Assembly: GCA_964371255.1 (NCBI GenBank)
Contig: CAYJKV010000002.1
Span: 66,553-130,552 of the forward strand
Direction of reading: 5' to 3'
Origin: an uncultured Candidatus Saccharibacteria bacterium
GTDB taxonomy: Bacteria > Patescibacteriota > Andersenbacteria > UBA10190
Length of the DNA: 64,000 bases
Numbering within the stretch: position 1 is the first letter of the stretch; every line of letters starts with the position of its first letter. Below are positions 24,871-64,000 of the stretch, one piece after another. The notes under the pieces were generated by a model. It did not search any database and was not told the DNA's origin. It saw only the letters and a program-made list of their open reading frames with translations. The position numbers and the translations under genes are program-made.

Positions 24871-26343
24871 TTATTCTTCTTGATCGCCGCGTTCACTGTC
24901 TGTCAAAATGACCTGCCTGCTGGCTGCCGTTAATCCGGCCACAATCCAAAACATCGCGTTGGTCGGCCAAATATCCCAAATGTCAATAAAAAACGCCTGC
25001 ATAACAAAGGCTGCCAGCCAACCAACTCCCCACAAACCAATGATTTTACTGGTCGCGTTCGTGGCGCCGATTGTGTCGAAACAACTCAGCAAAAAACGCC
25101 AATATAACCAGCCATATAATAATAAACCAGCTAAACCCATCTCGACCATTGTTTTCAAGTATTGGTTGTCAACCAAGGTCTGGTTCTTGATCAACTGCAC
25201 GTCGCGGCTATTGCCCGTCGCGATGTCATAAATCTGAATATCATCTTGTCTGAAATTTTGCATCATCACGTCACCCAGTCCCTTGCCTACTAACGCTTCC
25301 GTGTTGGTCATGGGTCCGATTAGTCTCGCCATAAATTGCAGCCGCTCCTCGTTACTGGCATAACGCGGGTCGATAAATGATCGGACGTAAATACCGGCGC
25401 GTGTGTAGTGCATCATGCCCAAGGTTCCGCCAACCATAATCACGCCGGCCACTACAATGATTTTTACTAAGGATTTCCGGCTCATTGTCTTGGCTAGCTC
25501 TGTCATGCCCCAAGTGACAATTACCGCACTCATGCCGACTATGAATCCTATCCAAACAGCCCTTGAATAAGTCAGCCAGATGAACGGTAAAATTATCAGC
25601 CACAAGCCCAGCCAAACCAACCGCTGCTTTTTATTAGTCCAAACCATGCCTATGGCAGCCACTAATAAGCAAATACTGACGATGTACTGACCAAAAATAC
25701 TGGGATGTGCCAGTGTGCTGGAAATTCTGGGGATCCAAATCATTCGCACCGGGTCAAATCGCAGCACCGCGCTATCCATGGCCCATAACCACTGATAAAT
25801 ACCTAGTAGCGCCACCACCCCCGCACTATTTAATAACCAGACTAATCGCTGCTTCATCCGTTGCTGTGAATGCGGTAGATACAGTACTCCGAAGTATAAG
25901 AAAGCGTAAATAATAATATCTCGGGCTCGCAGGATTCCCAGCACTAAACCATTATCTGCCCGCAGCGCCTCCATGCCAGTCCAAATTATCAACCAGATAA
26001 TTGGTGTTGTTAGCGCAGCTCTCCGGTAGGGCAATGTTTGCCTGATAATTGGCCAAAGAAATTGCCGTGTGAATAAAGTAACAATAATTACATCTTTAAC
26101 CAGCGTGGCCGTACCAATAGTTTGCGTTATCTTCAGCATTGGCAGGATCGGCGCTAACACTATCAGCAGCCACAATCCTTGTTCCGGATTTTGCCAAACC
26201 CACCAGGCCGTGGCCATAAACAATAGACAGAAAAATCCCAACTGCCAACTCAGAAACACTGCAATAAAACTTGCTACCAAACCGGCTACTATAATCCAAC
26301 TGATACTATTCACCGACTCTTGCCAACGAGATGTCATGTTCAT
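24871..26343 (-). CDS. O-antigen ligase/polymerase-like (Wzy_C-type) polytopic membrane protein
   Basis: About 490 aa with at least 10 TM helices and a Wzy_C-like motif region (LTYSRAVWIGFIVGMSAV). The start chosen at the ATG at 26343 avoids the 49-nt overlap with the upstream GT2 gene; the maximal ORF starts at 26397. Confidence 0.5.
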   Translation of the reverse strand: MNMTSRWQESVNSISWIIVAGLVASFIAVFLSWQLGFFCLLFMATAWWVWQNPEQGLWLLIVLAPILPMLKITQTIGTATLVKDVIIVTLFTRQFLWPIIRQTLPYRRAALTTPIIWLIIWTGMEALRADNGLVLGILRARDIIIYAFLYFGVLYLPHSQQRMKQRLVWLLNSAGVVALLGIYQWLWAMDSAVLRFDPVRMIWIPRISSTLAHPSIFGQYIVSICLLVAAIGMVWTNKKQRLVWLGLWLIILPFIWLTYSRAVWIGFIVGMSAVIVTWGMTELAKTMSRKSLVKIIVVAGVIMVGGTLGMMHYTRAGIYVRSFIDPRYASNEERLQFMARLIGPMTNTEALVGKGLGDVMMQNFRQDDIQIYDIATGNSRDVQLIKNQTLVDNQYLKTMVEMGLAGLLLYGWLYWRFLLSCFDTIGATNATSKIIGLWGVGWLAAFVMQAFFIDIWDIWPTNAMFWIVAGLTAASRQVILTDSERGDQEE

Positions 26344-26348
26344 AACAG

Positions 26349-27236
26349 TTAACCTCTCATTTTTTGCCGCCATTGCTTCATCGAGGCCGGTATCCACAAA
26401 CTAACATTGATGATACTCAATAAGTAAATCAGCATAACAGACGGTGTATTAAAATATTTTCTAGTGTAGCGCAACATACTCTTTAACCACGGCCAATTCT
26501 TTCGGATGCCAATTACCTGCCGAAAACTGACCCCACCCAAATGAATGCCTCGGGCGCTTGGCGTATACCACACTTCCCAGCCCAAATCTGCCGCCCGGTG
26601 ACAATAATCCACTTCCTCAAACCAGACGAAAAATCCGTCATCAAGATACCCCACCTGCTGCCCGCACGTATTCCTAATAAGAAAAATCGCTCCCATGACT
26701 TGATCAACCCTCTGCTCCTGATCGTAATTAATCGTTGCCTCCTTCACCATCAAGCCCAGCTTAAGGGTGAAATAAACCATGTCCTTGGTATTTGGGAAAT
26801 GTCTGACGGAAGGTTGTAGTGTCTGATCGCTGTTTAGGATTTTTGGCCCCACGATCCCGATGCGTTCGTGACGATCCAGCAAGGATACCAAATTGGCTAT
26901 CATCCCAGGCAACGCGACCGTGTCCGGATTTAACAATAAAACGTGGGCGACCGATCCCCGCTCTTGCTGCCTCCTTAAGCCGATATTATTAGCGGCCGCA
27001 AAGCCTAGATTCCGGTCATTCATGATAAACCTGACGGCCGGTTTGTTGTTCAGGTCTGATACCGCCTGTTTTGCCTCGACCACAGATCGATCATTCGACG
27101 CGTTATCGACAACTATTACTTCCTCAATCATTTGCCTCTCCGGCAGGGCCGCTAGTGATCGCACACAATCTGCCAGACAGTGGCCGGTATTCCAGTTCAC
27201 TATTATAATTACGACCGTGCGGTTATCTGCAGTCAT
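26349..27236 (-). CDS. glycosyltransferase family 2
   Basis: 295 aa with VVIIIVNWNTGHCLADCVRSL...VIVVDNASNDRS and LLLNPDTV, a GT-A fold. Confidence 0.8.
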   Translation of the reverse strand: MTADNRTVVIIIVNWNTGHCLADCVRSLAALPERQMIEEVIVVDNASNDRSVVEAKQAVSDLNNKPAVRFIMNDRNLGFAAANNIGLRRQQERGSVAHVLLLNPDTVALPGMIANLVSLLDRHERIGIVGPKILNSDQTLQPSVRHFPNTKDMVYFTLKLGLMVKEATINYDQEQRVDQVMGAIFLIRNTCGQQVGYLDDGFFVWFEEVDYCHRAADLGWEVWYTPSARGIHLGGVSFRQVIGIRKNWPWLKSMLRYTRKYFNTPSVMLIYLLSIINVSLWIPASMKQWRQKMRG

Positions 27237-27282
27237 ATCCGTTATCTATTAAAAAACTAATCCTAATCCTACTTTATATCTA

Positions 27283-28038
27283 ATGACCAATCTACAACAA
27301 ATAAAAACCTATTTAGACGATTATCTCAATCTCGCCAGCTTTAGTGATGACTCTTGGAATGGGCTGCAATACGAGGGATCGTCTCAAATTCATAAGATCG
27401 CTTCAGCTGTTGATGCCACTTCCCAAGCGTTCGCGGCGGCCGGGGAGGCGGGTGCAGATATGCTCTTAGTCCATCACGGCTTGTTCTGGCACCAGTCGAA
27501 TCCCTCGTTGGTTGGCTGGCAAAAAGATAGGCTAGATTTATTAAGGAGTCAACAAATATCTCTTTATGCTGCTCATTTACCCCTCGACCAACATCCAGTC
27601 GTTGGCAACAACGCCCAAATTTTGAACCTGCTTAAGGCCCAGCGTACGGTTGGATTTTATCCCCACGACAATAATAACATCGGCTGGATAGGTCAGGTAA
27701 AACCAACCGCCCTATCGACCATTACTGACCAGTTAAACACAGGCCTGGCCGCTGCCTGCCGGGTTTTACCATTCGGCAAAAAACAGGTCACAACCATTGC
27801 TGTTTGTTCTGGGAGTGGCGGTTATGCCGGCTTTTTTGCTGCTTTGGCTGCCCATGTTGATCTGTACATCAGCGGCGACCCTGTCTACGTGGATCCTAAC
27901 GCGAAGGAAGCCCGGCTCAATGTCATATTTGCCGGACATTATGCGACCGAAACATTGGGTGTCATAACCCTGTCGGAGCAGTTGTCCCGGCAATATTCAC
28001 TGCCGCATACGTTTCTGGAACTGCCACCTGATCCCTGA
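27283..28038 (+). CDS. Nif3-like dinuclear metal-centre protein (GTP cyclohydrolase 1 type 2 / YqfO family)
   Basis: 251 aa with DSWNGLQ, LLVHHGLFW, LYAAHLPLDQHP and the C-terminal GHYATE. Confidence 0.8.
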   Translation: MTNLQQIKTYLDDYLNLASFSDDSWNGLQYEGSSQIHKIASAVDATSQAFAAAGEAGADMLLVHHGLFWHQSNPSLVGWQKDRLDLLRSQQISLYAAHLPLDQHPVVGNNAQILNLLKAQRTVGFYPHDNNNIGWIGQVKPTALSTITDQLNTGLAAACRVLPFGKKQVTTIAVCSGSGGYAGFFAALAAHVDLYISGDPVYVDPNAKEARLNVIFAGHYATETLGVITLSEQLSRQYSLPHTFLELPPDP

Positions 28039-28101
28039 TCATTAGTTCTGCCATCTTTGAGTGCTCGCTAAAAACGATAAAAAAAAGCCGACCTGCAATG
28101 A

Positions 28102-28590
28102 TCAGCTATAAGACATGGTTGCTAAAACAGCTTCGTGTCGCGTCCTTAGTCCATTTTCTCTTTCGGCAATGCTAACCAGCCAGTCTCTGCGTAACTCCTC
28201 AATTAATGCGGCCTGTACTGCGCTATTTTCATCTTGTAGAGCAAACAGCAATTCACCGTACGTCTGGATTAATCCGGGAAGCGCTATGGATAATTTGCAT
28301 CCTTCGCCGTGTTGGTCGTGACATCTTAATATCGTCCTCGCTACCAACTTTATCGCACTAACTTCCGGCCAATAAAAAATCATCATTCCTTTACCGCACC
28401 GGCAATATCCAACATTGCGTAGCTTATTATTGGGCATAGGTTCCAATGGATCCCAGCCAACAGTCGAGAATAATTCCGGGTTGGCTTCCTTATTACCTCC
28501 TGGCAACAACACTCCGCCTTGTTTTCCTACCAAAATAAAGGGAATGATCACCTTTCGCATTGCGTGTCTCCTAATAATAGAAAGAACCAC
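28102..28590 (-). CDS. hypothetical protein (Cys/His-rich; no recognised family)
   Basis: 162 aa as the maximal ORF; the start is probably the MRKV ATG at 28560. Contains CRCGKG and CHDQHGEGC. It sits antisense to the flanking operons. Confidence 0.3.
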   Translation of the reverse strand: MVLSIIRRHAMRKVIIPFILVGKQGGVLLPGGNKEANPELFSTVGWDPLEPMPNNKLRNVGYCRCGKGMMIFYWPEVSAIKLVARTILRCHDQHGEGCKLSIALPGLIQTYGELLFALQDENSAVQAALIEELRRDWLVSIAERENGLRTRHEAVLATMSYS

Positions 28591-28626
28591 TTAACCGCGC
28601 ATCATATTATGATAAACGATAATTAA

Positions 28627-29733
28627 TCAACTCTCAATTATCGCTAGTGTTTGTTTGGCTGTCTTGTCCCAGCTTACATTCTTTATTCGTTGCCTTCCCC
28701 TATTGATCAACTCTGCTCGTCCATTGATCGCTGCTTGGATACCATTTTTGATACTTAAGACATCAGTTGCTTTAATGATTTGCGCTGCGCCGCCCGCTAC
28801 ATCTGGTAACGCTGAATTATCACTTGTTACTACCGGACAGCCACAGCTCATCGCTTCCAATATTGGCATGCCGAATCCTTCATACAAACTGGGCAGCACA
28901 AAAACCTCTGCTCCCCAATATAAAGCGCGCAGCTCATTGTCCTTAACTGTTCCCAGGCGGTGAATTCTATTTTTAAACGGTGAATTATTATAAGCGTTAT
29001 CGATTGTTTGGCGTTTCCAGCCATGCCCCCCGGCCAATACTAATTGCCAATTATGATTCTCCGGCGCGAGCCGGTTAAAAGCTTTGATTAGTCTGACCAA
29101 ATTTTTTCTCGGCTGTATCTGCCCGACGTATAGAATATAAGGCTTGGTAATTCCCAGCTTCTGATTGATTACACCCATTGCCAATTGTGCCTCTTGCTCA
29201 TCCCGCGGCAAACGCCATTGCTCTTGATCTATGCCGTGTCCGACCACTCTAACTTCGCGGGTTCGCCGATAGTATTGAGCGATATCCCTGGCTGTCGCTT
29301 TCGACACCGCGATGATCTTCGTTGCTTGCCGGCAAACCTGAGCGCTGAATAGGTGCAGCAGCAGCCAGTCTTTGAAAGTAAATTGCCGGGGAAATTTGTG
29401 AATGGCTAAATCATGTACCACGGCTACCGTCTTCATTCTCGGCCTTAAAATCGGTAACTGCTGGATCGGCATGAATAATATCTCGGGTCGATACCGGTAA
29501 AGTTCCCATGGTAAACGAAGCTGCGTCCAGTATTTTGGCCAAGGTGATTTTAGTATTTTTACATTAGCGGCGGTTATTTCCTTTTCTACCCCTGGCGATA
29601 AAGAGGGACAAAAAAATAACCATTCATGTTTCGGTTGTAACTTTGGCAGCCTCTTCGCCAGCTCTTTGGTATATCTAGTCGTACCGTCCGCCCGGTTACT
29701 CGCTAAGTCTGAAATATCAAAGGCAATCTTCAT
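28627..29733 (-). CDS. glycosyltransferase family 4 (GT-B, retaining)
   Basis: 368 aa with the GT4 C-terminal signature SLYEGFGMPILEAMSCGCPVVTS. Confidence 0.85.
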   Translation of the reverse strand: MKIAFDISDLASNRADGTTRYTKELAKRLPKLQPKHEWLFFCPSLSPGVEKEITAANVKILKSPWPKYWTQLRLPWELYRYRPEILFMPIQQLPILRPRMKTVAVVHDLAIHKFPRQFTFKDWLLLHLFSAQVCRQATKIIAVSKATARDIAQYYRRTREVRVVGHGIDQEQWRLPRDEQEAQLAMGVINQKLGITKPYILYVGQIQPRKNLVRLIKAFNRLAPENHNWQLVLAGGHGWKRQTIDNAYNNSPFKNRIHRLGTVKDNELRALYWGAEVFVLPSLYEGFGMPILEAMSCGCPVVTSDNSALPDVAGGAAQIIKATDVLSIKNGIQAAINGRAELINRGRQRIKNVSWDKTAKQTLAIIES

Positions 29734-29756
29734 AGTTCCACCTTATCACACTCCGC

Positions 29757-32396
29757 TTAAAGCTCACGGATAAGTTTCAGCAAAGTGGCAACTCGGTTAT
29801 CCCAGTCGTGCGGCTCTGCTGCCTTGATTCTTTCCCGGCCGCCTGCCTCAGGTGCTCGATATGCTCTTCGAATACCATTTATAAAATCACGCTCGTTTTT
29901 GGCATAATTAATTAAATTGACGTATTCTCTCAGCTCGGGTAACCCCGTGACAACAATTGGCTTGCCCGTCGCCATAAACTCCCAGAACTTTAAGGGAAAA
30001 CTCGCTGCGTTGTATTTATTGGCGCGATAAGGAATAACGCATACATCAAAACAGTGGACAAATTGAGGCACCTGCGCTGGCGGTATTGTCCCCAGTAAAC
30101 TAACATTCTGAAGGCTCGCTAACTTTTTTAAAAGCTTCTTTTTTCTATCGATAATCGGTGAGCCGATAAACACAAAACTCCAGTCAGGCTGTGCCTGTGC
30201 TGCCCGATACAATAGCTCAAAATCCACCTTATATTCGTCCAGCGCCCCCACTGATCCAATAATTGGTTTCTGGAGCTTGGCCAACTCCTTAGGACATTGG
30301 CTCTCTGGCCGGCTGAATAATTTTGTGTTGCCGGCATTGAGCACTAATTTCACGTTGCGCCCTTTTTTGCTTTTACTATGAAAGAGACGTTTTGACGTCA
30401 CGCAAATTAGATCGGCCCGCTGCATAATCCTCTCTTCTTCCTCCTTTACCCGTGTCGGGTTTCTGTCTACGCCTGCTTGCGCCGCGTGGTCGTCTACACA
30501 ATCATAGATGACTTTGTCACCCTTGAAGGCGGATAAATATTCGGCTGCTTCAGTATCGTATACCCACATTATTCTCTCTCCTCGCTTGAATTTAAGCAGC
30601 GTCGCTATGTTTAAAACATTATAGCGGTTCAGTAGATGATTAAACCTGGCGACTGCACCCAGCTCCCTTGATCCAGGGATTAAATTAAACTGTGCCTTGA
30701 TATACAGGTTGTCATTTATTCGCTGGTACCAGAACAATCGCTTGCCATAAGACCAGATTCTTCCCGGCCTGCCTAAATTTTTCCCAATATATTTAACTAT
30801 CCACACCCGAGGTTCAACATACAGAACTGGTATATGGCAGCTAATTCTTGACATCACGTTTTGTCGGTTGGTCCATGTATTCGCGCCGTATTCAGCGCCG
30901 GCAAAACAAACAATTGTGTTCCTTACAGGCATTTTCCCTCTCCTGACCTCCCTCCGGCCCATTAAGGCTAACTCTTTGACGCCTGGTATCAGACGGCTCT
31001 TTCTGGCTTCGAACCAGACAAATCCTCCCAATAAAATAAACGCCATCAATCGCCATCCGAAAGGTGGATCAAAAAATAACCAACAAAAACTTACGGCTAG
31101 TAATAACAGAAACAGTAGCAATTGCCTTGTGAGTACACTGACGCCAAACTTTGTCTTGGCGATCGTCACCATCAGCGCGTAAGACAGCAATACGCCCCCT
31201 AACACGGCCCAGGCTGATAACAAAGGGTCTGGTTTCACAAATAGTAAACCGGTCATAATCACCCCTGTCACGCTGGTCATTAACAGGTATGTGTAAGCCC
31301 GTAATTTTGGGGCATCGGCTGGCACGAACACGCTGCTAGTCCCAATGTCGACTAACGTATAGAGGAAAAAGCCAAGGGTCATCACCAGGATTATCTTATG
31401 CGCTGCCAGATATTCTGCGCCGATTACATATTGTAAAATTTCTGGTGTGAAAAATAGCAGCAGCAACGCAATTCCCATCATCAACACCAATACCCGCTGC
31501 ATGTTACGAGTGACTACTTGGGCGAATTCGCCCCTTTGCTTCGTATAGAGGGAACTCATCCAGGCCAGATTCACCTCAGATAAGGCCATTGCTATTATCG
31601 TCATCTTCGAACCGAAAGTTTGTGATACATTCAAATAGCCCAGCTGTTCAGCCGATAGCACGCCACCTAACATGAGAATCGGCAAGCGCTGCCATAATAT
31701 AAAGAATATTCTGGCTGCGTACATATAAGCGCCAATACGCATCACGCGCCAGCCATATTTTTTTACGTCCGACCAGCTAGGCAACGCGAGATTCTGTTTC
31801 AACGCTCGGGTAATCAGCCAGAACAACAAAATAATCATTAGGGTGGTGGTTAACACAATTGCCCAAAAGAAACCAGCGACGCCAAATTTCCAAGCCATAT
31901 AGCCAAACACCGCCACGTTAATTGCTGCCGTCACAATTTGCACTACATAAAGTTCAATGAACTTCTTCATGCCAGTCAGCGTCGCGCCCATTACGTCCTG
32001 TAAGCCTTGCAACACTAACACGCCAGCGAACACTTCTAAAAAAGTTTCAATCTCGGGACGTCCGTATACTCGGCCGGCAATTAAACCTGCCAACAACAGC
32101 AATCCTACTGATAAGGGGATAGTTACGATTTGTCTAACCAGATGCGACACCCAAAATACCTTGCCAACCTCGCGGTTATTTTCTAAGACCGCGATCTCTC
32201 TGATCGCGCCATCGACAATCCCTAAATGCTGCGATACACCAATCACACCGCCAATTGACATCACTAATCCCACCAAGCCATATTCAGCCGGCGAAAATAT
32301 CCGAATAATTATAATGCTTTGTATGATGCCCAGCGCGGTTGTTACCGTCTTGGCTCCGATTGATATCGCTTGAATTCTACCCAGTTTGAACGGCAT
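29757..32396 (-). CDS. fusion protein: N-terminal Wzx-like polysaccharide-biosynthesis membrane domain (MOP superfamily, ~470 aa) and C-terminal GT-B glycosyltransferase domain
   Basis: 879 aa. Residues 1-~470 are polytopic (12-14 predicted helices) with the PST-family layout. Residues ~480-879 are soluble, with a GT4-like nucleotide-sugar-binding motif (FPLKFWEFMATGKPIVVTGLPEL). Confidence 0.6.
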   Translation of the reverse strand: MPFKLGRIQAISIGAKTVTTALGIIQSIIIIRIFSPAEYGLVGLVMSIGGVIGVSQHLGIVDGAIREIAVLENNREVGKVFWVSHLVRQIVTIPLSVGLLLLAGLIAGRVYGRPEIETFLEVFAGVLVLQGLQDVMGATLTGMKKFIELYVVQIVTAAINVAVFGYMAWKFGVAGFFWAIVLTTTLMIILLFWLITRALKQNLALPSWSDVKKYGWRVMRIGAYMYAARIFFILWQRLPILMLGGVLSAEQLGYLNVSQTFGSKMTIIAMALSEVNLAWMSSLYTKQRGEFAQVVTRNMQRVLVLMMGIALLLLFFTPEILQYVIGAEYLAAHKIILVMTLGFFLYTLVDIGTSSVFVPADAPKLRAYTYLLMTSVTGVIMTGLLFVKPDPLLSAWAVLGGVLLSYALMVTIAKTKFGVSVLTRQLLLFLLLLAVSFCWLFFDPPFGWRLMAFILLGGFVWFEARKSRLIPGVKELALMGRREVRRGKMPVRNTIVCFAGAEYGANTWTNRQNVMSRISCHIPVLYVEPRVWIVKYIGKNLGRPGRIWSYGKRLFWYQRINDNLYIKAQFNLIPGSRELGAVARFNHLLNRYNVLNIATLLKFKRGERIMWVYDTEAAEYLSAFKGDKVIYDCVDDHAAQAGVDRNPTRVKEEEERIMQRADLICVTSKRLFHSKSKKGRNVKLVLNAGNTKLFSRPESQCPKELAKLQKPIIGSVGALDEYKVDFELLYRAAQAQPDWSFVFIGSPIIDRKKKLLKKLASLQNVSLLGTIPPAQVPQFVHCFDVCVIPYRANKYNAASFPLKFWEFMATGKPIVVTGLPELREYVNLINYAKNERDFINGIRRAYRAPEAGGRERIKAAEPHDWDNRVATLLKLIREL

Positions 32397-32646
32397 ATGA
32401 ATAAATTAAATAGTACATCATAATCCACGCATTTCCCTGATCCGTCAAATGCTGATCAGTGCTTGCCTTAATACTTCAGCAAGGTTAACCGCGGTGCTTA
32501 TTATTAGTACTACTCAAGCCCTTTCTTACTACTCACCCTTCACTTAAGGTTTCATCTTCCCGAGGGTTTCTATTATTACCAAAAAACAAACCGCCCCCCG
32601 CCCTTCTTCACAAATTTGGTTATCGAAGGTTTCAGTTAATTAGATT

Positions 32647-35432: not shown

Positions 35433-35642
35433 GTTATTTCATCCTACCTTACAACGCTTTGTTTGTTAACAACCTTACCTGAATCTGTGACTTGGACTTA
35501 TTCACTAAAACAGATAATCGCACGAACCGCCGTGCTATACTTTAGCTGTGTTTGCAGATTCTCCAGATACCTGGCTGGACACAACACTCTATTTGACAAT
35601 TTCGGAACTATCAAGCATATTAACACCTCATTTAATCATTTC

Positions 35643-36704: not shown

Positions 36705-36734
36705 ACAGCCTTTCGCTGTCTAAATTTCTATCTT

Positions 36735-44835: not shown

Positions 44836-44883
44836 TGTGATAAAGATGCTACTAGTCATAACCCATCCTAATTTGTTTGCACT

Positions 44884-49995: not shown

Positions 49996-50012
49996 TCTTA
50001 ATTTATAATCTT

Positions 50013-51101: not shown

Positions 51102-51111
51102 CGCAACCTTT

Positions 51112-52209: not shown

Positions 52210-52285
52210 CCCCCTTGCCCCTCTTTACTACCTGTCATAATTTACATATAGATCTCACCTAATTTATTCTTCCATAAATATATAT

Positions 52286-53014: not shown

Positions 53015-53036
53015 GCACCACTGACTCTATCGTTTC

Positions 53037-56488: not shown

Positions 56489-56535
56489 CAGTGACGCGTA
56501 TTAGTTCTTTAATGATTGCTCTATAGCTATTTTTT

Positions 56536-58051: not shown

Positions 58052-58059
58052 CTGCCGAC

Positions 58060-58905
58060 ATGCTTTCCGCTATTGTCATTACCCGCAACGAAGAGGACTC
58101 CATTGCCGGCTGTCTCGCAAGTTTATCCTTTGCTGACCAGGTTGTGGTGGTCGATTCCGGCAGTACTGATAATACCGTGTCAGTCGCGCGGCAGCGCGGT
58201 GCCCAAGTCTATACCCATGCTTGGTCCAGCTATGGTGATCAGAAAAATTTTGGCGCCTCCAAAGCATTAGGGCAGTGGCTATTGTTTATTGATGCAGACG
58301 AGCAGGTCTCCCCTGCCTTAGCTACCACCATCACCGCCTTGGTCGGTAATACTGCCGCCGCTCCGCCTCATGATTTTTATTGGCTGCGCATTATTACCGT
58401 CTTCCTCAATCGTCCGCTACCTCATTTATTTGGCAATAACGTCCGTCTATTTAAAAAATCTGCCGGCCAGTGGGACACGGCCCCCGTTCATGAGCAAGTC
58501 CTGACCGCGACTGACCAGACCATTAAACTCGGCGATCAATGGTCAGGCCGGCTTTTCCCGCCCCTGTTTCATTACTCGCATCGCACAGTGACCTCATATC
58601 TTACTAAGATGTATCACTATACTACTCTCGATGCCCGGCACATGTTCCGCACACAGCGTCATCGGTCCGGTAAAAAATATTACCCCTCGGTATTTCTGCC
58701 CTATCGATTATTTGTTCGTCAACTGGTTAAACTGCTTTTTTACCGGCGTGGTTTTATGGACGGTTTAGCTGGCTGTCTCTGGTGTGTGTTGTCTGCTTAT
58801 TATGAATTTGATATGGCCAAAAAATATAATCGGCTTAGCCGAACGCCTCCTCAATACCCGCTTCAGGCTGCCGCGCCTGATCAGCCAGCAGAAAAAGCGG
58901 ATTAA
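58060..58905 (+). CDS. glycosyltransferase family 2
   Basis: 281 aa with LSAIVITRNEEDSIAGCLASL...VVVVDSGSTDNT and FIDADE. Confidence 0.8.
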   Translation: MLSAIVITRNEEDSIAGCLASLSFADQVVVVDSGSTDNTVSVARQRGAQVYTHAWSSYGDQKNFGASKALGQWLLFIDADEQVSPALATTITALVGNTAAAPPHDFYWLRIITVFLNRPLPHLFGNNVRLFKKSAGQWDTAPVHEQVLTATDQTIKLGDQWSGRLFPPLFHYSHRTVTSYLTKMYHYTTLDARHMFRTQRHRSGKKYYPSVFLPYRLFVRQLVKLLFYRRGFMDGLAGCLWCVLSAYYEFDMAKKYNRLSRTPPQYPLQAAAPDQPAEKAD

Positions 58906-58913
58906 TTATTCTT

Positions 58914-60065
58914 ATGCGGATCGTCCATACTTGCTTGCGTTACCCCCCCGCTACTGGCGGTGTGGAAACCTATGTACAACAACTGGTCACTCGCACCCGT
59001 AATATTGAGCAGCAGATTGATGTCCGAGTCCTCACCAGTAAAATGCGCACCCATGGTCCGATTTCCGACTTGTCACCGGACTTATTGTTAGACGATCCGC
59101 CATACGTGCAGCGCCTCCATCACCTGGCTACTCCCTTTGTTTCCTACCCTCGTTTGCAGGCCCTCAAATATTATTTGACCCATCATAACCCTGACATTGT
59201 TCACGGCTACAGCTTTTGGTACCAGCCGGCCGATGTCGCTGCCCGCTGGGCAGCCCAACATCGCCGCCTCTTTATTTTTCATCCGATGTACTACGAATCA
59301 GTCAGGCGAAAGAAACTCACCTGGCAGATTTATTGCCGAACCATCGGCTATCGGACTTTCGCGGCCGCTGATGCCGTGGTCGTTATTTCTCCTTATGAGC
59401 AAAGCCTGATTACGCGGGCCGGCTTTCCGGTTAAACGGTTTTATCTAATTCCACCTGGCATAGACATTTCTGAATTTAATCATCCCGGTATCAATCCATA
59501 TCCTTCGTCCTCGTCGATCGCTCCTATTATCCTTTGTGTCTCACGTTTGTCGGCTGAAAAGAAACTTCAGGACGTAATATCCGTCATGCCGCAAGTGCTG
59601 CACCATGCTCCCCACGCTCATCTTTTTCTAGTCGGCGAGGATTTTGGTTATCAGTCAGAGCTCCGGGCCTTAATAAATAAACTTGACCTCTCCGGCCACG
59701 TCCATTTTCTTGGCCGCCTCAGTCGTCAGCAGCTGCTTGGTGCCTATCAACATGCCGATCTTTTCATTCATCCTTCTAATTATGAAGCTTTTGGCATTGT
59801 CGTGGCAGAGGCGATGGCCGCTCGCCTGCCTGTCATCGCTCGCGACACCTCTGCCATACCATACGTTGCCCCGCATCGTCAGGCCGCTCTTCTATTCCGT
59901 ACTCAAAACGATCTCACGGCCAATATCTTGACTGTGCTTAGAGACAACAAATATGCACAAACTCTCACCAACAACGCCTATCAACGAGTTCTGACGAACT
60001 TCACGTGGGATTTAACTCAAAAAAAAGTGGCCGATCTTTACTCAGGGTTACTGACTAAAGATTAG
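58914..60065 (+). CDS. glycosyltransferase family 4
   Basis: 383 aa with SNYEAFGIVVAEAMAARLPVIARDTSAIPYV. Contains a C7 tract at codons 10-12 (58943..58949). Confidence 0.85.
   Translation: MRIVHTCLRYPPATGGVETYVQQLVTRTRNIEQQIDVRVLTSKMRTHGPISDLSPDLLLDDPPYVQRLHHLATPFVSYPRLQALKYYLTHHNPDIVHGYSFWYQPADVAARWAAQHRRLFIFHPMYYESVRRKKLTWQIYCRTIGYRTFAAADAVVVISPYEQSLITRAGFPVKRFYLIPPGIDISEFNHPGINPYPSSSSIAPIILCVSRLSAEKKLQDVISVMPQVLHHAPHAHLFLVGEDFGYQSELRALINKLDLSGHVHFLGRLSRQQLLGAYQHADLFIHPSNYEAFGIVVAEAMAARLPVIARDTSAIPYVAPHRQAALLFRTQNDLTANILTVLRDNKYAQTLTNNAYQRVLTNFTWDLTQKKVADLYSGLLTKD
58943..58949 (+). repeat. poly-C(7) homopolymeric tract at the 5' end of the GT4 CDS
   Basis: Seen directly: taCCCCCCCgct, encoding YPPA at codons 10-12. 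Confidence 0.9.
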
Positions 60066-60469
60066 TCACTGAACGCCAGGTTGTCTTGTCCACTCGCGGC
60101 GCAAAGCTGCTCGGCTAAAGACAGGAGGGAATGCGATTGGATGTGCGCAATTTGTCTGGGATGAAATTCCTGGAAATCAACAAACTTGGTTAAATGTCGA
60201 TCATCATCACCAACCAAAATCACGACAAATGGGCCATGCGCATTTTGCTTAAGGGCCTCCTCCGCATTGCTGATCTCTGTTTGTTGCTTGACGTTTCTGC
60301 CCAGTCGATTCACCTCATCCAATACAACCATGTGCACATTATCATAAACTTCATAGAGGCCTTCCCACTGTTCAAAACCCAACACGCTGACCTGAAAACC
60401 TGCCTGTGCTAAAGTTCCAACAATGCCGGTTGGTTCGTCAGATACTACAATTGCCTTCCTGTCTCTCAT
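60062..60469 (-). CDS. hypothetical stand-alone receiver (CheY-like)-fold protein
   Basis: 135 aa with an alternating beta/alpha pattern and acidic residues at receiver-like positions (VVSDEP...VVLDE...VVILVGDDD...TKF). Weak call. Confidence 0.35.
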   Translation of the reverse strand: MRDRKAIVVSDEPTGIVGTLAQAGFQVSVLGFEQWEGLYEVYDNVHMVVLDEVNRLGRNVKQQTEISNAEEALKQNAHGPFVVILVGDDDRHLTKFVDFQEFHPRQIAHIQSHSLLSLAEQLCAASGQDNLAFSD

Positions 60470-60551: not shown

Positions 60552-61625
60552 ATGTCAAACCTTAACTATCTCATCCTGTCGCTCTCCGGCATCGGTAACT
60601 ATCTCATGCACACCGCTCTTATTCACGCCATTAAAGTACATCAGCCAACCGCTACCATTACTCTCTGGGTGGCCCCTCGTCACACGGCGGTTCTCGCCCA
60701 GGCCAACCCCGACATTGATCATGTTATTAAGGCTCCTATCAAGCGCTCATTGTTGGGCCACCTGCAACAAGTTATCAGGTTGCGTCATTTATCCCCTGAC
60801 ACGGGATTCATTCTTTACCCGGGACAACTTTGGAAGAGTGCGCTCTACGTTTTTTTAGCGGGGGCTTACCGGCGTGTCGGACATCGTTATATGCATCTAG
60901 GTAATCCTGACAGTTCATTATTACTGACTAATCCGGTCAATGTTAATCCCGCGCTGCATGATATTGATCAAAATCTCGCGCTGCTGCAACCGTTGTCCAT
61001 CCCAATTCCGTCTGCCCTGCCCCCTTATTTTGTCACGATACCGACCCATTATCAGCAACAGGCGAAATCACTTCTAGCCCGCGTGCACCATTCATCCCCC
61101 GCCGCTAAAATTTACTTCGGTCTTCACCCCGGCTCTGCGCCAGATTTTGCCTGGAAACGCTGGCCGATTGAACGATATGCCAGCCTGGCTAAGCAAATAA
61201 TTAAAAAGTATCACGCTCATGTTTTAATATTCGGCGGCGCTCAAGAACTTACGCTCATGAAAAACCTTCGCCGTCTCATCGGCCCGGACCATTCGTCTAT
61301 AATGTCTGCCCACTTGCTCACCGTCGCGGCCCTGATGAAAAATTGCCAATTATTTATCGCTAATGACTCAGGGCTAATGCATCTTTCCTCGGCCTTGTCT
61401 GTTCCGACTATTGGTCTATTTGGTCCCACCAATGAGCGTCGCACGGGTCCTCGCGGTCAAGGCAGCGTGCCACTGCGCGCTCCCGGCACTGCCCCTGTTT
61501 ATGACGTCAACACAAACTACGCCCTGGGCTCAAGCCCTCATCCGTTCATGTTGGCTCTTAACACTTCCCTGGTTATGGCGGCAGTAGAAAATATACTAAA
61601 TCAACCCCCGGCTCAATCGTCGTAG
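60552..61625 (+). CDS. glycosyltransferase family 9 (heptosyltransferase-like)
   Basis: 357 aa with LILSLSGIGNYLMHTALIHAIK and the C-terminal IANDSGLMHLSSALSVPTIGLFGPTN. Confidence 0.7.
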   Translation: MSNLNYLILSLSGIGNYLMHTALIHAIKVHQPTATITLWVAPRHTAVLAQANPDIDHVIKAPIKRSLLGHLQQVIRLRHLSPDTGFILYPGQLWKSALYVFLAGAYRRVGHRYMHLGNPDSSLLLTNPVNVNPALHDIDQNLALLQPLSIPIPSALPPYFVTIPTHYQQQAKSLLARVHHSSPAAKIYFGLHPGSAPDFAWKRWPIERYASLAKQIIKKYHAHVLIFGGAQELTLMKNLRRLIGPDHSSIMSAHLLTVAALMKNCQLFIANDSGLMHLSSALSVPTIGLFGPTNERRTGPRGQGSVPLRAPGTAPVYDVNTNYALGSSPHPFMLALNTSLVMAAVENILNQPPAQSS

Positions 61626-61630
61626 CACTT

Positions 61631-62596
61631 TCACCCCGCTTGTTTTACGCCGGGTTTTACTGCCTTTTCTTCTCGCGCGACATCATTCGTGTCCATTCTG
61701 TTAATGGCATATCTAATATCCCGCCAAGAACCTATTGTTTCCCCACCTTTTGTAGTAAAGGCGGCAGCACAACCTAGCTTCTTCAGAATTGCCTCAGTTT
61801 CTTTATTGTATGAGCCATAGGGATAACACATCGTCCAGCCAACCTCGGGAACTCCAATACTAATCAGCGCCCTTAAAGCTTGATCAATTTCCTCTTGTTG
61901 TTTCTCCCGTGACAATTTTTCCAACCAAACATGATTATAACCATGGTTGCCAACTGTCATGCCGTCTTCCAGCAACTGCTTAACTTCACCTACCTTCATG
62001 TAAAGCCCATCTGCGATTGATCTTTCATCTTGCCCCACGTGTTGAGCAAACATCTCATTAATAATTAACGTTCGTACTCGATCCGGCAGCGCGAACTGAA
62101 GCATGCTTTTGATATATTTAATTTCCGCGCTATCAAATCTTCCGGGTTTGCCATATTCTCGCCAATATTCACTAATTTGCCACAACGTGTCTTCTCCGCG
62201 TCGCTGCTCAATCATCGCATGCATCGTCTTAATTATATCAAGAGGCCTGATTCCTCGGCCCAGTATCAATTGAATCTTATTTGTTTCTGTGATCTTTCTT
62301 TCCCACACCGCCCGGCTAGAGATAAAAAATATCGCGGCCACCTTTTCTTCCGCCAAAATCGGCCTTACAGTCGTAAAGTGCTCCCGGTAACCGTCATCGA
62401 ATGTCAATAATATATCCGTACGTGGCAACACCTTATTTTGCTTTACGCTCTCCAAAAAATCCGTTGGGGTAATAATTCTGCCGCTCCTCCTGAGTAAGTT
62501 TAATTGCCGCCGAAATTGATCAACGGATAACGCCTTCAGCTGCGGCCACTTACTACCCGCCACGTCTCTCACGTAGTGGTAGTTAACTATGCGCAT
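61631..62596 (-). CDS. polysaccharide deacetylase (NodB domain, CE4)
   Basis: 321 aa with ILLTFDDGYREHF and VGNHGYNH motifs. Confidence 0.8.
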   Translation of the reverse strand: MRIVNYHYVRDVAGSKWPQLKALSVDQFRRQLNLLRRSGRIITPTDFLESVKQNKVLPRTDILLTFDDGYREHFTTVRPILAEEKVAAIFFISSRAVWERKITETNKIQLILGRGIRPLDIIKTMHAMIEQRRGEDTLWQISEYWREYGKPGRFDSAEIKYIKSMLQFALPDRVRTLIINEMFAQHVGQDERSIADGLYMKVGEVKQLLEDGMTVGNHGYNHVWLEKLSREKQQEEIDQALRALISIGVPEVGWTMCYPYGSYNKETEAILKKLGCAAAFTTKGGETIGSWRDIRYAINRMDTNDVAREEKAVKPGVKQAG

Positions 62597-62618
62597 GTCA
62601 GCCAGCTTTAATTGTCAT

Positions 62619-63527
62619 CTAGTCTTTAACACCATGAATCATAAACGCGGAGGCTTGCCCGATCAGTCTTAAATCATGAGCATACTCCTGCAGGAGATTC
62701 GCTATTTCAAAATGAATACGAGGCTCGCTGGTTTTAAAACTGGGCGGACCGCAATGGATATGCACCGGGCCGACACCATCAATCCTGAAACCTTCGCGAT
62801 CCATAATTTTCATCAACTGGATCGGCGTATATTGATAGCGTGAGCCCACGGCAATGCCGGTGTTGGCATGAATCATCTCTTCGTTCTGCATCGGCGCAAC
62901 CGTCATCTCGAGCAGCTCCCGCACCGGTCGGTGGTCATTGAGCGCCACAATTTCGGCCGCCAACGTTTCCACTGTTCCCTCGGCTATTTCGCCGGCCGTG
63001 TATTCATTAGCGGACATCATATTAAATAATCGATTACGCGAGCTCACGACCAATGACCCTCCTGGCTTTAAAATACGGTAAGCATCATTAAAAAAATCGT
63101 CCCGTTGCTCATAGGAGATATATTCGATAAAGCCATTCGCGACCACCACGTCATAACTTTTATCCTCGACGTGCCAATCAAAGAAATCGGCCAAAATAAA
63201 CTCCGCCAAGCTTATTTTATCGTCTATCGCCCGCTGATGAGCTAAGTCCACCATTCCCCCCGCGATGTCAATCCCAGTCGCTTTAATCCCCATTTTCGCT
63301 GTTTCACAAACTAGATCACCTACCCCGCTGCCAATATCCAATAAATACTTAGTCTCTGTCCGTTTCTTTAATACTGCGAGCACGTAATCATTGCGCTGCT
63401 TTATGACATTCACTTTATTTATAACCAGTCCATCTGCCTTACGCTCCCAATCCTGCGCCTTTTCGTCAAAAAATCTCTTTGCTTCTTCTTGCTGCTTGGT
63501 GCGTTGAATTTTTTCCCGTATGTTCAT
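62619..63527 (-). CDS. class I SAM-dependent methyltransferase
   Basis: 302 aa with motif I LLDIGSGVGDL and post-I/II motifs GIDIAGGMV and ILKPGGSLVVS. Confidence 0.8.
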   Translation of the reverse strand: MNIREKIQRTKQQEEAKRFFDEKAQDWERKADGLVINKVNVIKQRNDYVLAVLKKRTETKYLLDIGSGVGDLVCETAKMGIKATGIDIAGGMVDLAHQRAIDDKISLAEFILADFFDWHVEDKSYDVVVANGFIEYISYEQRDDFFNDAYRILKPGGSLVVSSRNRLFNMMSANEYTAGEIAEGTVETLAAEIVALNDHRPVRELLEMTVAPMQNEEMIHANTGIAVGSRYQYTPIQLMKIMDREGFRIDGVGPVHIHCGPPSFKTSEPRIHFEIANLLQEYAHDLRLIGQASAFMIHGVKD

Positions 63528-64000
63528 TGTTTAGATATTACTTGTTTATAAAATACTTCATACTGCGATGCAATCCTTTCTTTAGTGAGATTGCTGATCA
63601 CCCATGCCCTCGCCTCCCTGCCCATGGCTTGCCTTTCTGTATCATTCATCCGCAGTGCCTTGATTATAGACTCGCTCAGAGCTTCCCGGGAATTGCGCTT
63701 AAAAAGCAGGCCAGTCTTTCCAGTTTTGATCATTTCGCTTGGTCCGCCGACATCGGCCGCTACTACTACTTTACCTCTAGCCATACCTTCTGCCACTGTT
63801 CGTCCAAACGGTTCATGCCAAATATGCGGCGCCACAACGATCTGTGCCTGGTTATATTCCCTGATCGTTTGATCCCACGGGACCGGCCCGATCAATTTAA
63901 CTGAGTATTGTAAACCGTATTTTTCAATCCTCGATTCGTATTCCTGACGATTTCTCCCCTCGCCGACTATTCTTAATGATGCCTTAGGTTCCTTTTGTAT
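63524..64000 (-). CDS. glycosyltransferase family 4, C-terminal part (gene continues beyond the window end)
   Basis: The C-terminal GT4 region is HEPFGRTVAEGMARGKVVVAADVGGPSEMI. The frame stays open upstream of the track's TTG at 63895 all the way to position 64000. Confidence 0.7.
   Translation of the reverse strand: MQKEPKASLRIVGEGRNRQEYESRIEKYGLQYSVKLIGPVPWDQTIREYNQAQIVVAPHIWHEPFGRTVAEGMARGKVVVAADVGGPSEMIKTGKTGLLFKRNSREALSESIIKALRMNDTERQAMGREARAWVISNLTKERIASQYEVFYKQVISKQ

Follow-up and report, generated by a model that had tools for sequence, protein, structure and literature searches.

The reading that we favour, at a probability of about one half, is that a large gene block for glycan assembly in the 64,000-nucleotide stretch of Candidatus Andersenbacteria chromosome analysed here (the window) is the central part of an envelope supercluster that is syntenic across this lineage of the Candidate Phyla Radiation (CPR; Patescibacteria), is joined to the dcw peptidoglycan genes, and makes one or a few conserved wall-associated glycopolymers similar to a secondary cell-wall polymer (SCWP). 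The block spans ca. 54 kb and holds ca. 25 predicted glycosyltransferases (GTs). It starts at 18968, where two GT2 genes stand at the head of the dcw genes, and runs ca. 8.7 kb beyond the window end. The ca. 39 kb that the initial annotation of this DNA had delimited (24871-64000) is smaller than the true block, and its bounds were arbitrary, as the block starts upstream and continues past 64000.

Open reading frames (ORFs) were called mechanically, every sizeable one was scanned against Pfam-A at gathering scores, and NCBIfam was applied with its equivalog cut-offs. The tally over the ca. 54 kb came to eight GT2, 11 GT4-type, two GT9, one TagF-like, and three GT-C proteins, leaving out MurG, FtsW, and a possible GT-B at 50013. 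Pfam supported the initial annotation in its claim of at least 16 GTs in one contiguous block; most of the calls passed their gathering scores, and the concern that the majority might fail the HMM thresholds was not borne out. Of the six GT2 proteins expected there, five were found inside 24871-64000 (26349, 35643, 40346, 52286, and 58060), with two more just upstream at 18968-20766. The count of six or more GT4 proteins held, with seven Glycos_transf_1 proteins, one fused to Wzx and one cut by the window end. The 4-nt overlapping operons were real, and two CE4 deacetylases, an ATP-grasp ligase, an S-adenosylmethionine (SAM) methyltransferase, PgeF, SpoIID, and Nif3 were all confirmed by Pfam. 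A very large investment in the assembly of a surface or wall glycoconjugate was supported as proposed, and an SCWP, an S-layer glycan, and a host-attachment glycan are all still plausible products.

Gene order was compared between the window and same-species or related loci, which carry L-numbers (L001, L007, L033, L042, and so on). A scan with one genome per species yielded 35 loci, in which the window proteins were mapped by tblastn and blastp. In essentially every one of these with enough flank, down to L033 at 36% identity, the first half of the block kept the order MraY, DD-carboxypeptidase, GT2, GT2, MurF, DegT, FemAB, Wzy_C, GT2, GT4, Wzx/GT4, GT4, SpoIID, GT2, GT4, PgeF, GT-C, GT2, GT4, and a 774-aa protein, with core genes present in 82-96% of assessable loci. 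The second half was traced through the contigs of YfhO homologs, and its order was kept in four further species (L043, L045, L046, and L047): Wzx, a 19x-aa protein, a variable 489-aa protein, MurJ, a 362-aa protein, GT9-like, GT2, YfhO, TagF-like, a variable RimK, CE4, GT2, GT4, GT9, and several GT4. In one of these four species (JBBDZC01), the second half was colinear with the first on one contig, ca. 21 kb from the Wzx/GT4 fusion. In L007, the closest representative, the glycan genes were 60-83% identical to those of the window (78% for the fusion), and MurF and FemAB were 63% and 70% identical; conservation is equally high in the glycan and the peptidoglycan genes.

Glycan loci are frequently variable islands, and two membrane genes of the block seemed not to be intact in some same-species contigs, either of which could have pointed to an assembly chimera or to a horizontally acquired, strain-variable glycan island. 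The apparent disruptions of the 774-aa and 615-aa genes, and of NIF3 in L054, are explained by 100-N scaffold runs (6253-6352 in L001, 487-586 in L003 and L005, and others in L053 and L054), so that these genes are not pseudogenes, and strain-level pseudogenisation or phase variation of the GT-C genes in L001, L003, and L005 was rejected. Exact copies of three locus proteins were each found on at least 23 contigs of metagenome assemblies in ENA. Twelve stretches from seven contigs of independent assemblies were colinear with window positions 19,594-64,000 at 99.5-100% identity, and a single contig, NODE_292 (102.8 kb), spans the window from 19.7 to 64 kb and ca. 9.5 kb past its end. A chimera, which had been named as a way in which the locus could prove false, is excluded.

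Composition was native as well. GC content was 0.476 in the locus and 0.483 in the flanks, GC at third codon positions was 0.507 and 0.508, and relative synonymous codon usage (RSCU) of the locus correlated with that of same-strand housekeeping genes at r = 0.92, against r of ca. 0 with the opposite strand. The low overall RSCU correlation of 0.45, which might have been taken for an island signature, is a strand effect. The GTs of the locus were only 24-37% identical to each other in an all-against-all BLASTP comparison, so the block is no array of recent duplications, and a recent paralog expansion was ruled out. Together with synteny across ca. 35 species, these results refute the chimera or island reading, which retains next to no probability; the locus is a core, vertically inherited feature, with native composition relative to its flanks. 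The contrast that the initial annotation had drawn with the compact housekeeping content elsewhere in the window dissolves accordingly, as the locus is contiguous with the dcw genes, keeps its order in ca. 35 species, and shares their same-strand codon usage.

Codon usage in the window is dictated by strand. GC skew was -0.11 to -0.28 in every 2-kb bin, whatever the coding strand, and third codon positions (G/C/A/T) were.30/.20/.26/.23 in minus-strand genes and.21/.30/.16/.33 in plus-strand genes, with the 15-gene operon at 41384-60065 lying on the C/T-rich strand.

The relatives added several observations on how the block is distributed. The YfhO homologs P0166 (L042) and P0231 (L044), considered as orthologs, turned out to be paralogs from separate GT-C-rich loci. 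Such extra loci lie ca. 70-90 kb from the main block. The one in L042 (CAZSUC010000001.1, 610.6-632.9 kb) holds seven GT-C-type genes in 22 kb, namely ALG3 (weak), PMT, PMT_2 (four, weak matches counted), and YfhO, and adjoins a TrwB/TraG-like ATPase and an AAA+ protein; in L044, PMT and PMT_2 genes stand beside a fused Glucosamine_iso and PIG-L protein. In L045 (JBDRMS010000005.1, 1-7200), an HsdM type I restriction-modification methylase, a PhdYeFM antitoxin, RadC, and XseAB lie directly upstream of the 362-aa gene, and these 7 kb did not contain the genes from Wzx to MurJ that precede the 362-aa gene in the window, an insertion indicating that the block can be split. Third-party-annotation metagenome-assembled genomes titled “uncultured Candidatus Saccharibacteria bacterium” (L011, L013, L014, L016, L017, L019, L022, and others) share the syntenic locus. 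These and the Andersenbacteria-titled genomes show the same 50-60% identity to the window locus, and the Saccharibacteria title seems to be a catch-all or an error.

The mechanism that we propose is drawn, at each of its steps, from family membership and gene adjacency. Soluble GT2, GT4, and GT9 enzymes, together with the TuaH-like domain of the fusion, would build a polyprenyl-linked oligosaccharide at the cytoplasmic face. A minus-strand module at 24871-33858 (Wzy_C, GT2, GT4, fusion, GT4) would build and export the lipid-linked unit and polymerise or ligate it. It includes the Wzx-GT4 fusion (29757-32396, 879 aa), in which a Wzx-type flippase with ca. 11-12 transmembrane (TM) helices (residues ca. 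1-450; Pfam Polysacc_synt_3, 78.6 bits) is joined to a TuaH-like GT4/GT-B domain (ca. 490-879; Glycos_transf_1). NCBIfam TuaH matched this protein at 1.1e-40, with 139.7 bits against a cut-off of 550. More than 120 full-length homolog clusters, 50-78% identical, had the identical two-domain architecture, and where their source was named it was Candidatus Andersenbacteria. With ca. 12 TM helices ahead of it, the GT domain would come to lie in the cytoplasm, and we propose that the fusion would tie export of the unit to a glycosyl transfer late in its assembly. Outside the Patescibacteria, nothing of the fusion but its TuaH-like GT domain was found (32% identity, residues 561-876), in an 11-kb locus of Candidatus Omnitrophota (L040, QNCE01000038.1) that also holds a GT9 homolog, 26% identical to the GT9 protein of 357 aa in the window (GT9_357, 60552-61625).

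The module ends at 24871-26397 with a polytopic membrane protein of ca. 10 TM segments, present in 18 of 19 assessable loci, that carries a Wzy_C domain of the superfamily of O-antigen ligases, polymerases, and O-oligosaccharyltransferases. Its Pfam score (32.9 bits against a cut-off of 31.7) upheld the O-antigen-ligase-like protein of the initial annotation by a small margin, and it had no sequence match in the PDB. From its family, it is a candidate polymerase or ligase that would act on the unit outside the membrane, possibly together with the 489-aa protein discussed below. The other members of the module are a GT2 (26349-27236, 295 aa; Pfam and NCBIfam, 18 of 22 assessable loci) weakly similar to rhamnosyl- and galactofuranosyltransferases, and two GT4 enzymes, GT4_368 (28627-29733, 368 aa; 113 bits, 22 of 23) and GT4_403 (32647-33858, 403 aa; 133 bits, 21 of 23). 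Between them lie two genes that, by their distribution, are passengers: a plus-strand NIF3/DUF34 gene (27283-28038; 190 bits), found in just four of 23 assessable loci and probably a variable passenger outside the pathway, and a minus-strand ORF for a 162-aa protein (152 aa as called; 28102-28590), which had no Pfam or NCBIfam match and recurred in one of 23 assessable loci, that of the closest relative.

Following export, at least three pairs of a GT-A and a GT-C enzyme would decorate the polymer outside the membrane from polyprenyl-phosphate-monosaccharide donors. In the two pairs within the window, a GT-C was found adjoining a GT2, and the adjacency is conserved in related loci; the GT-C was recognised by Pfam (YfhO) at 53037 and by AlphaFold2 with Foldseek at 38443. 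The pairs would be GT2 40346 with GT-C 38443, GT2 52286 with YfhO 53037, and a GT2 with a DUF2304 protein beyond the window. Each of the short GT2 genes within the window (40346 and 52286) adjoins its GT-C.

The GT-C of the first pair (38443-40290, minus strand, 615 aa, ca. 12 TM segments) matched nothing in Pfam, NCBIfam, or the PDB by sequence, even as an 11-sequence profile, and its homologs formed only 45 clusters, none of them with a Pfam domain. AlphaFold2 on 45 sequences gave a model with a predicted local distance difference test (pLDDT) of 93.6 and a predicted template-modelling score of 0.93. All 20 Foldseek matches of this model at E <= 1e-3 were GT-C proteins, at probability 1.0 and template-modelling scores of 0.38-0.49, and included STT3/OST, AglB, DPY19, AftA, and ArnT. 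Across the 45 homologs, HGFYNGD (136-142) and LEYP (171-174) were invariant, including N140-G141-D142 and E172, which are candidates for the acidic, DxD-like motif expected in an extracytoplasmic loop of a GT-C. Judged by its predicted fold, this protein represents an orphan GT-C family that has no existing model and was seen in no other lineage. A soluble short GT2 (40346-41074, plus strand, 242 aa; Pfam 118 bits), similar to Dpm1, PpgS, and ArnC in NCBIfam below cut-off, lies divergently beside it, and the pairing was kept in nine related loci. By similarity and position, the GT2 is a candidate polyprenyl-phosphate-sugar synthase serving this GT-C.

A third GT2 of this type (35643-36704, plus strand, 353 aa, GT2_353), with two C-terminal TM segments and a presence in 15 of 17 assessable loci, is predicted to be a polyprenyl-phosphate-sugar synthase and, being membrane-anchored, may serve in further decoration. 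NCBIfam matched it to AglJ at 4e-42 and PpgS at 9e-30, both under the cut-offs. The nearest NCBIfam models for all three (35643, 40346, and 52286) were AglJ, PpgS, ArnC, and dolichyl-phosphate-hexose transferase, all far below cut-off. The mechanical ORF at 35463-36704 (413 aa, TTG start) was over-extended, since orthologs and public gene calls begin at the ATG at 35643, which is probably the real start; the divergent gap to SpoIID would then be ca. 210 bp and not 30 bp. The next gene is a GT4 (36735-37856, plus strand, 373 aa, 349 aa as called; Pfam, 15 of 17 assessable loci).

From 41384 to 60065 runs a plus-strand operon of 15 genes, which overlap by 4 nt in five places and are nowhere more than 76 nt apart. 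It opens with a GT4-type GT-B (41384-42514, 376 aa; Pfam) followed by a polytopic membrane protein of 774 aa (42511-44835) that reached 21.7 bits with DUF6541, short of the cut-off of 29. Among its aligned relatives, eight of 23 matched DUF6541 at E <= 0.01 (best E 3e-9), hhalign related the family to the C-terminal part of the 38443 family at 74.7% probability, and G121-D122 was nearly invariant; only 114 matches were found among 1.84 billion representative proteins. These similarities suggest that it is probably a GT-C and a further candidate for decoration. The three GT-C-like proteins of the initial annotation thus fared unequally, with YfhO upheld by Pfam, 38443-40290 by AlphaFold2 and Foldseek, and 42511-44835 weakly supported.

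The operon continues with the second Wzx-type (Polysacc_synt) flippase (44884-46332; 90.1 bits, orthologs 55-84% identical). The presence of two Wzx-like flippases, one of them GT-fused, and of a MurJ-like one agreed with the initial annotation, all scoring above Pfam cut-offs, and two proteins of the block therefore qualify for the flippase step of a Wzx/Wzy pathway. A second Wzx does not by itself imply a second polymer; by analogy with GacK of Streptococcus pyogenes, the one at 44884 may flip polyprenyl-phosphate-monosaccharide donors. This candidate for a dedicated flippase shares its operon with GT-A and GT-C genes, and no GtrA-family match was found. Next come a conserved protein of ca. 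195 aa with one TM segment and no family match (46317-46916; orthologs in L043, L046, and L047) and the 489-aa polytopic membrane protein with ca. 10 TM segments (46913-48382). No other gene of the operon varies as much as the latter, which is absent in L043 and 28% identical in L046; it and two orthologs had no Pfam match even at E <= 1, and hhalign with Wzy_C or YfhO proteins gave no clear relation. It is a positional candidate for a Wzy-type polymerase.

After MurJ (48379-49995; 217 bits), a conserved soluble protein of 362 aa without a family match (50013-51101; orthologs 48-67% identical) is possibly a divergent GT-B, as suggested by hhalign (68% to GT4_403 over 261 columns) and Glyco_trans_1_4 at E = 0.21; its single-sequence AlphaFold2 model had a pLDDT of only 38.6. 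A GT9-like GT-B of 365 aa follows (51112-52209), at a marginal 24.3 bits over 48 residues in Pfam and 61% in hhalign to GT9_357. The second GT-A/GT-C pair consists of a short GT2 (52286-53014, 242 aa; Pfam 108 bits, PpgS/AglJ/ArnC-like in NCBIfam below cut-off), which adjoins YfhO also in L043, L045, and L047, and of a YfhO-family GT-C membrane glycosyltransferase of 748 aa (53037-55283), which Pfam matched at 38.7 bits over a C-terminal stretch only and whose homologs are classed as YfhO in precomputed Pfam annotation. The GT2 is again a candidate, from its family and place, for the polyprenyl-phosphate-sugar synthase serving this GT-C.

Then follows a TagF-like, BFO_1060-like GT-B of 402 aa (TagF402; 55280-56488), with a weak match to Glyphos_transf only (28.4 bits) and NCBIfam below cut-off. 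Searches of the PDB by sequence and profile gave nothing meaningful for 38443-40290, 42511-44835, 50013-51101, 55280-56488, or 24871-26397. The operon ends with a RimK-family ATP-grasp ligase (56536-57399; Pfam 85.9 bits, NCBIfam rimK_fam 108 against 143 bits; absent in L043 and L046), a CE4 polysaccharide deacetylase of 219 aa without a TM or signal segment in the TM scan (57392-58051; Pfam), a GT2 (58060-58905), and a GT4 (58914-60065), the last two assigned by Pfam and kept in L043 and L045-L047.

Beyond the operon, a minus-strand gene for a 135-aa protein without a family match (60062-60469; ortholog in L047, ORF of similar size in L045) precedes a plus-strand, heptosyltransferase-like GT9 (60552-61625; 99.6 bits), which matched WaaF (1PSW) over its full length at 1.8e-15 and 3TOV at 4.2e-13. 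Its family membership is solid, and it scored under every NCBIfam heptosyltransferase equivalog cut-off. The two GT9 enzymes of the initial annotation accordingly divide into this firm one and the marginal one at 51112-52209. The last genes of the window belong to the end of a minus-strand operon whose start lies outside it: a CE4 deacetylase of 321 aa (61631-62596) and a SAM methyltransferase (62619-63527), both assigned by Pfam and found only in close relatives, and a GT4 cut by the window end (63524-64000; Pfam, C-terminal part of 415 aa). Past 64000, in the same species, this 415-aa GT4 is preceded by three further GT4 genes and by a membrane protein of 716 aa with no family assignment, and farther on by the pair of GT2 (233 aa) and DUF2304 (117 aa, Pfam 61.7 bits) and another GT4. 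The CE4 deacetylases, the RimK-type ligase (for example by amino-acid amidation of a uronic acid), and the methyltransferase would provide optional tailoring; it is precisely the RimK ligase, the methyltransferase, and the CE4 of 321 aa that some related loci lack.

The block is joined to peptidoglycan genes at its head and interleaved with them inside. Contiguous genes for MurC (11719-13026), MurG (13023-14246), FtsW (14359-15558), MurD (15497-16903), and MraY (16949-18010; NCBIfam equivalog passed at 206 > 192 bits), all on the minus strand and assigned by Pfam, form a dcw cluster with murF nearby. Upstream of MraY, as also in L008, L017, and L033, lies a D-Ala-D-Ala carboxypeptidase (Peptidase_S11; 18058-18960; 150 bits), followed by the two GT2 genes at 18968-19786 (272 aa; Glycos_transf_2, 85 bits; same-position orthologs 47-65% identical) and 19798-20766 (322 aa, C-terminal TM segment; Pfam, TM scan, and synteny). 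The latter is the first gene of the one minus-strand string that runs through MraY to MurC, with the dcw genes downstream of both GT2 genes, and this pair (18968-20766) lies outside the coordinates of the initial annotation and inside the conserved block. Divergent from this string is a plus-strand operon (20894-24716) for a MurF-like Mur ligase (20894-22423), a DegT/ArnB/PseC-like sugar aminotransferase (22444-23682; 13 of 15 assessable loci), and a FemAB-family peptidyl transferase (23700-24716; 15 of 17), all from Pfam and below NCBIfam cut-offs. Inside the block are a SpoIID-domain protein with an N-terminal TM segment, predicted to remodel peptidoglycan (33990-35432, minus strand; Pfam, median 64% identity, 19 of 22 assessable loci), and a homolog of the PgeF/YfiH-family (Cu-oxidase_4) peptidoglycan editing factor (37821-38513, minus strand; 59.9 bits).

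MurJ, SpoIID, PgeF, the DD-carboxypeptidase, MurF, and FemAB would serve ordinary peptidoglycan functions, and their genes lie beside the glycan genes and would in part be transcribed together with them. Not every gene listed in the initial annotation is unusual, then, as MurJ, SpoIID, PgeF, and probably the CE4 deacetylases have ordinary peptidoglycan functions. The interleaving of peptidoglycan and glycan genes suggests coordinated synthesis of wall and glycopolymer, and the conserved linkage to dcw, MurJ, SpoIID, PgeF, and FemAB favours a peptidoglycan-associated product.

The same arrangement is open to another explanation, namely that the glycan is built on, or moved directly to, peptidoglycan precursors, with MraY as sole primer, lipid II or nascent peptidoglycan as the glycosylated species, and export by MurJ or Wzx. 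MraY is the only polyprenyl-phosphate phosphoglycosyl transferase in ca. 73 kb, two GT2 genes head the MraY-MurC string, and MurJ lies midway through the 15-gene GT operon, among 4-nt overlaps, in an arrangement kept across the lineage; glycosylation of precursors would explain why the genes are joined to dcw and interleaved with MurJ. We nevertheless consider it very improbable. Co-location is weak evidence, the primer may be encoded outside the ca. 73 kb seen, and the dedicated Wzx and Wzy_C proteins argue for a separate lipid-linked intermediate. We know of no precedent for extensive glycosylation of lipid II. A bolder proposal, and one that we hold to be quite improbable, is that of a merged supercluster without a primer of its own, in which the glycan would be primed by MraY-derived lipids or on peptidoglycan precursors, its export gated by the Wzx-GT fusion, and lineage-specific GT-Cs (38443-40290 and the DUF6541-like 774-aa protein), together with GT9 enzymes re-purposed in a bacterium without LPS, would elaborate it outside. 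If true, this would be a route to wall glycopolymers undescribed in cultivated bacteria, and possibly a conserved host-contact structure.

The Wzy_C domain leads to a further alternative, general protein O-glycosylation of an S-layer, type IV pilins, or both, in which Wzy_C would act as a PglL/PilO-type O-oligosaccharyltransferase and the GT-Cs would be PMT-like and fed by Dpm1-like GT2 enzymes. The domain is common to O-oligosaccharyltransferases and its score is too weak to separate the subfamilies, YfhO paralogs of relatives adjoin PMT and PMT_2 genes, the best NCBIfam match of TagF402 was the BFO_1060 family, and the GT2 matches included the S-layer N-glycosylation enzyme AglJ and PgfS, all below cut-off. 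S-layers have been reported in some Patescibacteria (PMC13293708), and glycosylated S-layers have been suggested by CPR authors (PMC5220378). However, neither the window nor those related loci that were examined contained an S-layer or pilin gene, and the conserved linkage is to peptidoglycan genes and not to secretion or pilus genes. In addition, ca. 25 GTs are far above the need of known bacterial protein glycosylation loci. We consider protein glycosylation unlikely, although it is the most probable of the alternatives.

A membrane-anchored lipoglycan or glycolipid, like lipomannan and lipoarabinomannan (LM/LAM) or the anchor of lipoteichoic acid (LTA), appears more doubtful and is, in our judgement, distinctly unlikely. 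In such a system, GT4 enzymes would act on a scavenged lipid or phospholipid, a flippase would export the product, and GT-Cs would elongate it outside with polyprenyl-phosphate-sugars from Ppm1/PpgS-like GT2 enzymes. The combination of GT4 enzymes, Dpm1-like GT2 enzymes, and several GT-Cs is the logic of actinobacterial lipoglycans. No polyprenyl-diphosphate primer was found in the locus, and this model needs none; GT4_368 and GT4_383 had sub-threshold matches to IagA/BgsA, Dgs, Mgs, and GlcN-PG synthase; and the GT2 and DUF2304 pair resembles PpgS/Rv3632 of Mycobacterium tuberculosis (bioRxiv 10.1101/180810). Yet the glycolipid-synthase matches are far below cut-off and common to many GT4 families, the locus has no phosphatidylinositol (PI) synthase or acyltransferase gene, and the Wzx-type flippases and Wzy_C point to repeat units linked to polyprenyl diphosphate.

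Several points weigh against the wall-associated glycopolymer that we favour. In the window and the stretch beyond it (ca. 73 kb), no primer of the WecA/TagO or WbaP/PglC type was found, the only PF00953 protein being a true MraY that reached 35.6 bits with the WecA model. The window and ca. 8.7 kb beyond it contained no LCP ligase and, apart from one DegT, no gene for nucleotide-sugar synthesis, and no Wzz or polysaccharide co-polymerase match was found among the window ORFs of at least 100 aa and in the ca. 8.7 kb beyond. The polymerase call leans on a marginal Wzy_C score, and the domain also occurs in ligases and protein O-oligosaccharyltransferases. The NCBIfam equivalog matches are so far below cut-off that no sugar specificity can be assigned, and nothing in the sequence identifies the acceptor as wall, protein, or lipid. 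To our knowledge, no part in the wall polymers of monoderms has been established for GT9 enzymes. The block may also serve several unrelated products.

Outside the block, gene content is that of an ordinary chromosomal stretch. According to Pfam-A, genes for rpoA and ribosomal proteins S4, S11, and S13 (100-2450) are followed by a weak Baseplate_J-like protein, AlaRS, a LOG-family protein, a TrwB/TraG-like ATPase, and a protein with Sigma70_r4 and HARE-HTH domains; no tRNA or Rfam element was found in the window. The Baseplate_J-like protein (3162-4601, minus strand, 479 aa) is borderline at 21.6 bits against a cut-off of 21.1, and the adjoining AlaRS (4701-6521, minus strand) is unusually short at 606 aa, ending at the tRNA_SAD domain. 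The TrwB/TraG-like protein is a TrwB/TraG/HerA-like coupling ATPase of 559 aa with a C-terminal treble-clef zinc finger, and it is followed by a 474-aa membrane-associated protein without a family, both lying between housekeeping genes (together 7259-10393, minus strand); an ATPase similar to that of the window is present in L042. The protein with an N-terminal Sigma-70 region 4 and a HARE-HTH domain (10452-11528, minus strand) lies directly upstream of murC and could be a regulator of the dcw and glycan gene string.

The structure and assembly of the CPR envelope have been stated explicitly to be essentially unknown (PMC5220378). In the same work, 20 GTs were counted genome-wide in a Parcubacterium, and the abundance of GTs in the CPR was read as a sign of polysaccharides, glycoproteins, or a glycosylated S-layer (PMC5220378). 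In a cultivated Patescibacterium (a Saccharibacterium), genes for extracellular polysaccharide were essential or caused growth defects (PMC10633639). Among the papers naming Andersenbacteria, in so far as their text was accessible, none was found on its envelope or glycans, which is not proof of novelty; the papers matching a Wzx-GT domain fusion, seen to the same extent, appear to concern other systems. The enzyme families individually and the overall logic are already known, with no new chemistry shown. The present analysis adds one lineage-conserved block of ca. 54 kb joined to dcw, a conserved Wzx-GT4 fusion, and a GT-C family without a model.

“Many glycosyltransferases” thereby becomes a defined, lineage-wide gene set of ca. 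54 kb, which in a genome of roughly 1 Mb (an estimate) amounts to several percent. As this set is as conserved as the peptidoglycan genes to which it is joined, it argues for a structurally important, invariant glycopolymer and not for a variable antigen. Besides the new GT-C family, two or three conserved proteins without family assignment were identified, and the GT-A/GT-C pairs, the Wzx-GT4 fusion, and the GT9 enzymes provide concrete experimental targets. A conserved surface epitope is predicted, which could be used to enrich these uncultured cells by lectins or antibodies and which phages or hosts might recognise. These findings, at the level of family assignment, should be of value to work on CPR cell envelopes and on GT-C enzymes.

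Multi-component glycosylation systems of Gram-positive bacteria follow a similar logic, in which a GT-A makes a C55-P-sugar, a GtrA- or Wzx-type flippase exports it, and a GT-C, often with little sequence similarity to others and recognised by structure, transfers the sugar to LTA, wall teichoic acid, or SCWP (PMC8035078). Examples are CsbB/YfhO/GtcA of Bacillus subtilis, Staphylococcus aureus, and Listeria and CsdAB/CD/EF of Lactococcus lactis (PMC8035078; PMC5836110), and, in S. pyogenes, GacI with the DUF2304 protein GacJ, the Wzx-type GacK, and the GT-C GacL (bioRxiv 10.1101/180810). The window resembles these in its Dpm1/CsbB-like GT2 genes beside a polytopic GT-C (a YfhO member), in a GT-C (38443-40290) that, like GacL and GtlB, is recognisable by structure only, in a GT2 and DUF2304 pair just beyond its end that recalls GacI/GacJ, and in a Wzx-type flippase that, like GacK, lies in the same operon. 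It differs in having no GtrA-family flippase, in the presence of at least three pairs in one conserved block, and in one GT-C from a family without a Pfam model, with 45 clusters, seen only in this lineage.

The SCWP of B. anthracis is Wzx/Wzy-dependent and further decorated by a multi-component glycosylation system (PMC8035078). As in that polymer with GtsABC, the genes here comprise Wzx export, a Wzy-like protein, cytoplasmic GTs, and GT-A/GT-C genes, and the polymer, to judge from the genes, would be conserved and not hypervariable (PMC8035078). Unlike that system, the block has no TagO/WecA primer or LCP ligase, its Wzx is fused to a GT, it includes GT9 and TagF-like enzymes, and it is joined to dcw. 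Nor did we find the TagO, TagA, or ABC exporter of a teichoic TagF/TarF system in the window.

The tuaABCDEFGH operon of B. subtilis offers a third comparison, as the GT domain of the fusion is nearest to TuaH, other GTs show weaker similarity to TuaC and TuaG, and a Wzx-type (TuaB-like) flippase and a Wzy-like (TuaE-like) membrane protein are present. The counterparts of TuaB and TuaH, which Bacillus makes as two proteins, are fused in the window. Unlike the tua operon, the block lacks a TuaA primer and a TuaD UDP-glucose dehydrogenase, and all scores are far below the equivalog cut-offs, with no equivalog-level TuaA-H protein in the window by NCBIfam. Actinobacterial LM/LAM and PpgS/Rv3632 systems share with the block many GT4 enzymes, PpgS-like GT2 enzymes, a DUF2304 partner, and several GT-Cs, AftA being among the structural matches of the orphan GT-C; they differ in that PI-anchor enzymes are lacking and Wzx and Wzy_C present here, and the similarity is at superfamily level only. 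The full-length GT9 at 60552-61625 resembles WaaC and WaaF; unlike lipopolysaccharide (LPS) core systems, the window has no lipid A, Kdo, or ADP-heptose genes. As CPR bacteria have been reported to lack LPS synthesis (PMC5220378), the acceptor of this GT9 must differ from an LPS core.

The mix of Wzx/Wzy-type genes with Dpm1-like GT2/GT-C steps, which the initial annotation had described as no textbook pathway, is by analogy precedented in Gram-positive bacteria (PMC8035078; bioRxiv 10.1101/180810), and its remark on GT9 stands. What remains unusual is a block with no primer but MraY, GT9 enzymes in a bacterium in which LPS is expected to be missing, an orphan GT-C family, and a conserved Wzx-GT4 fusion.

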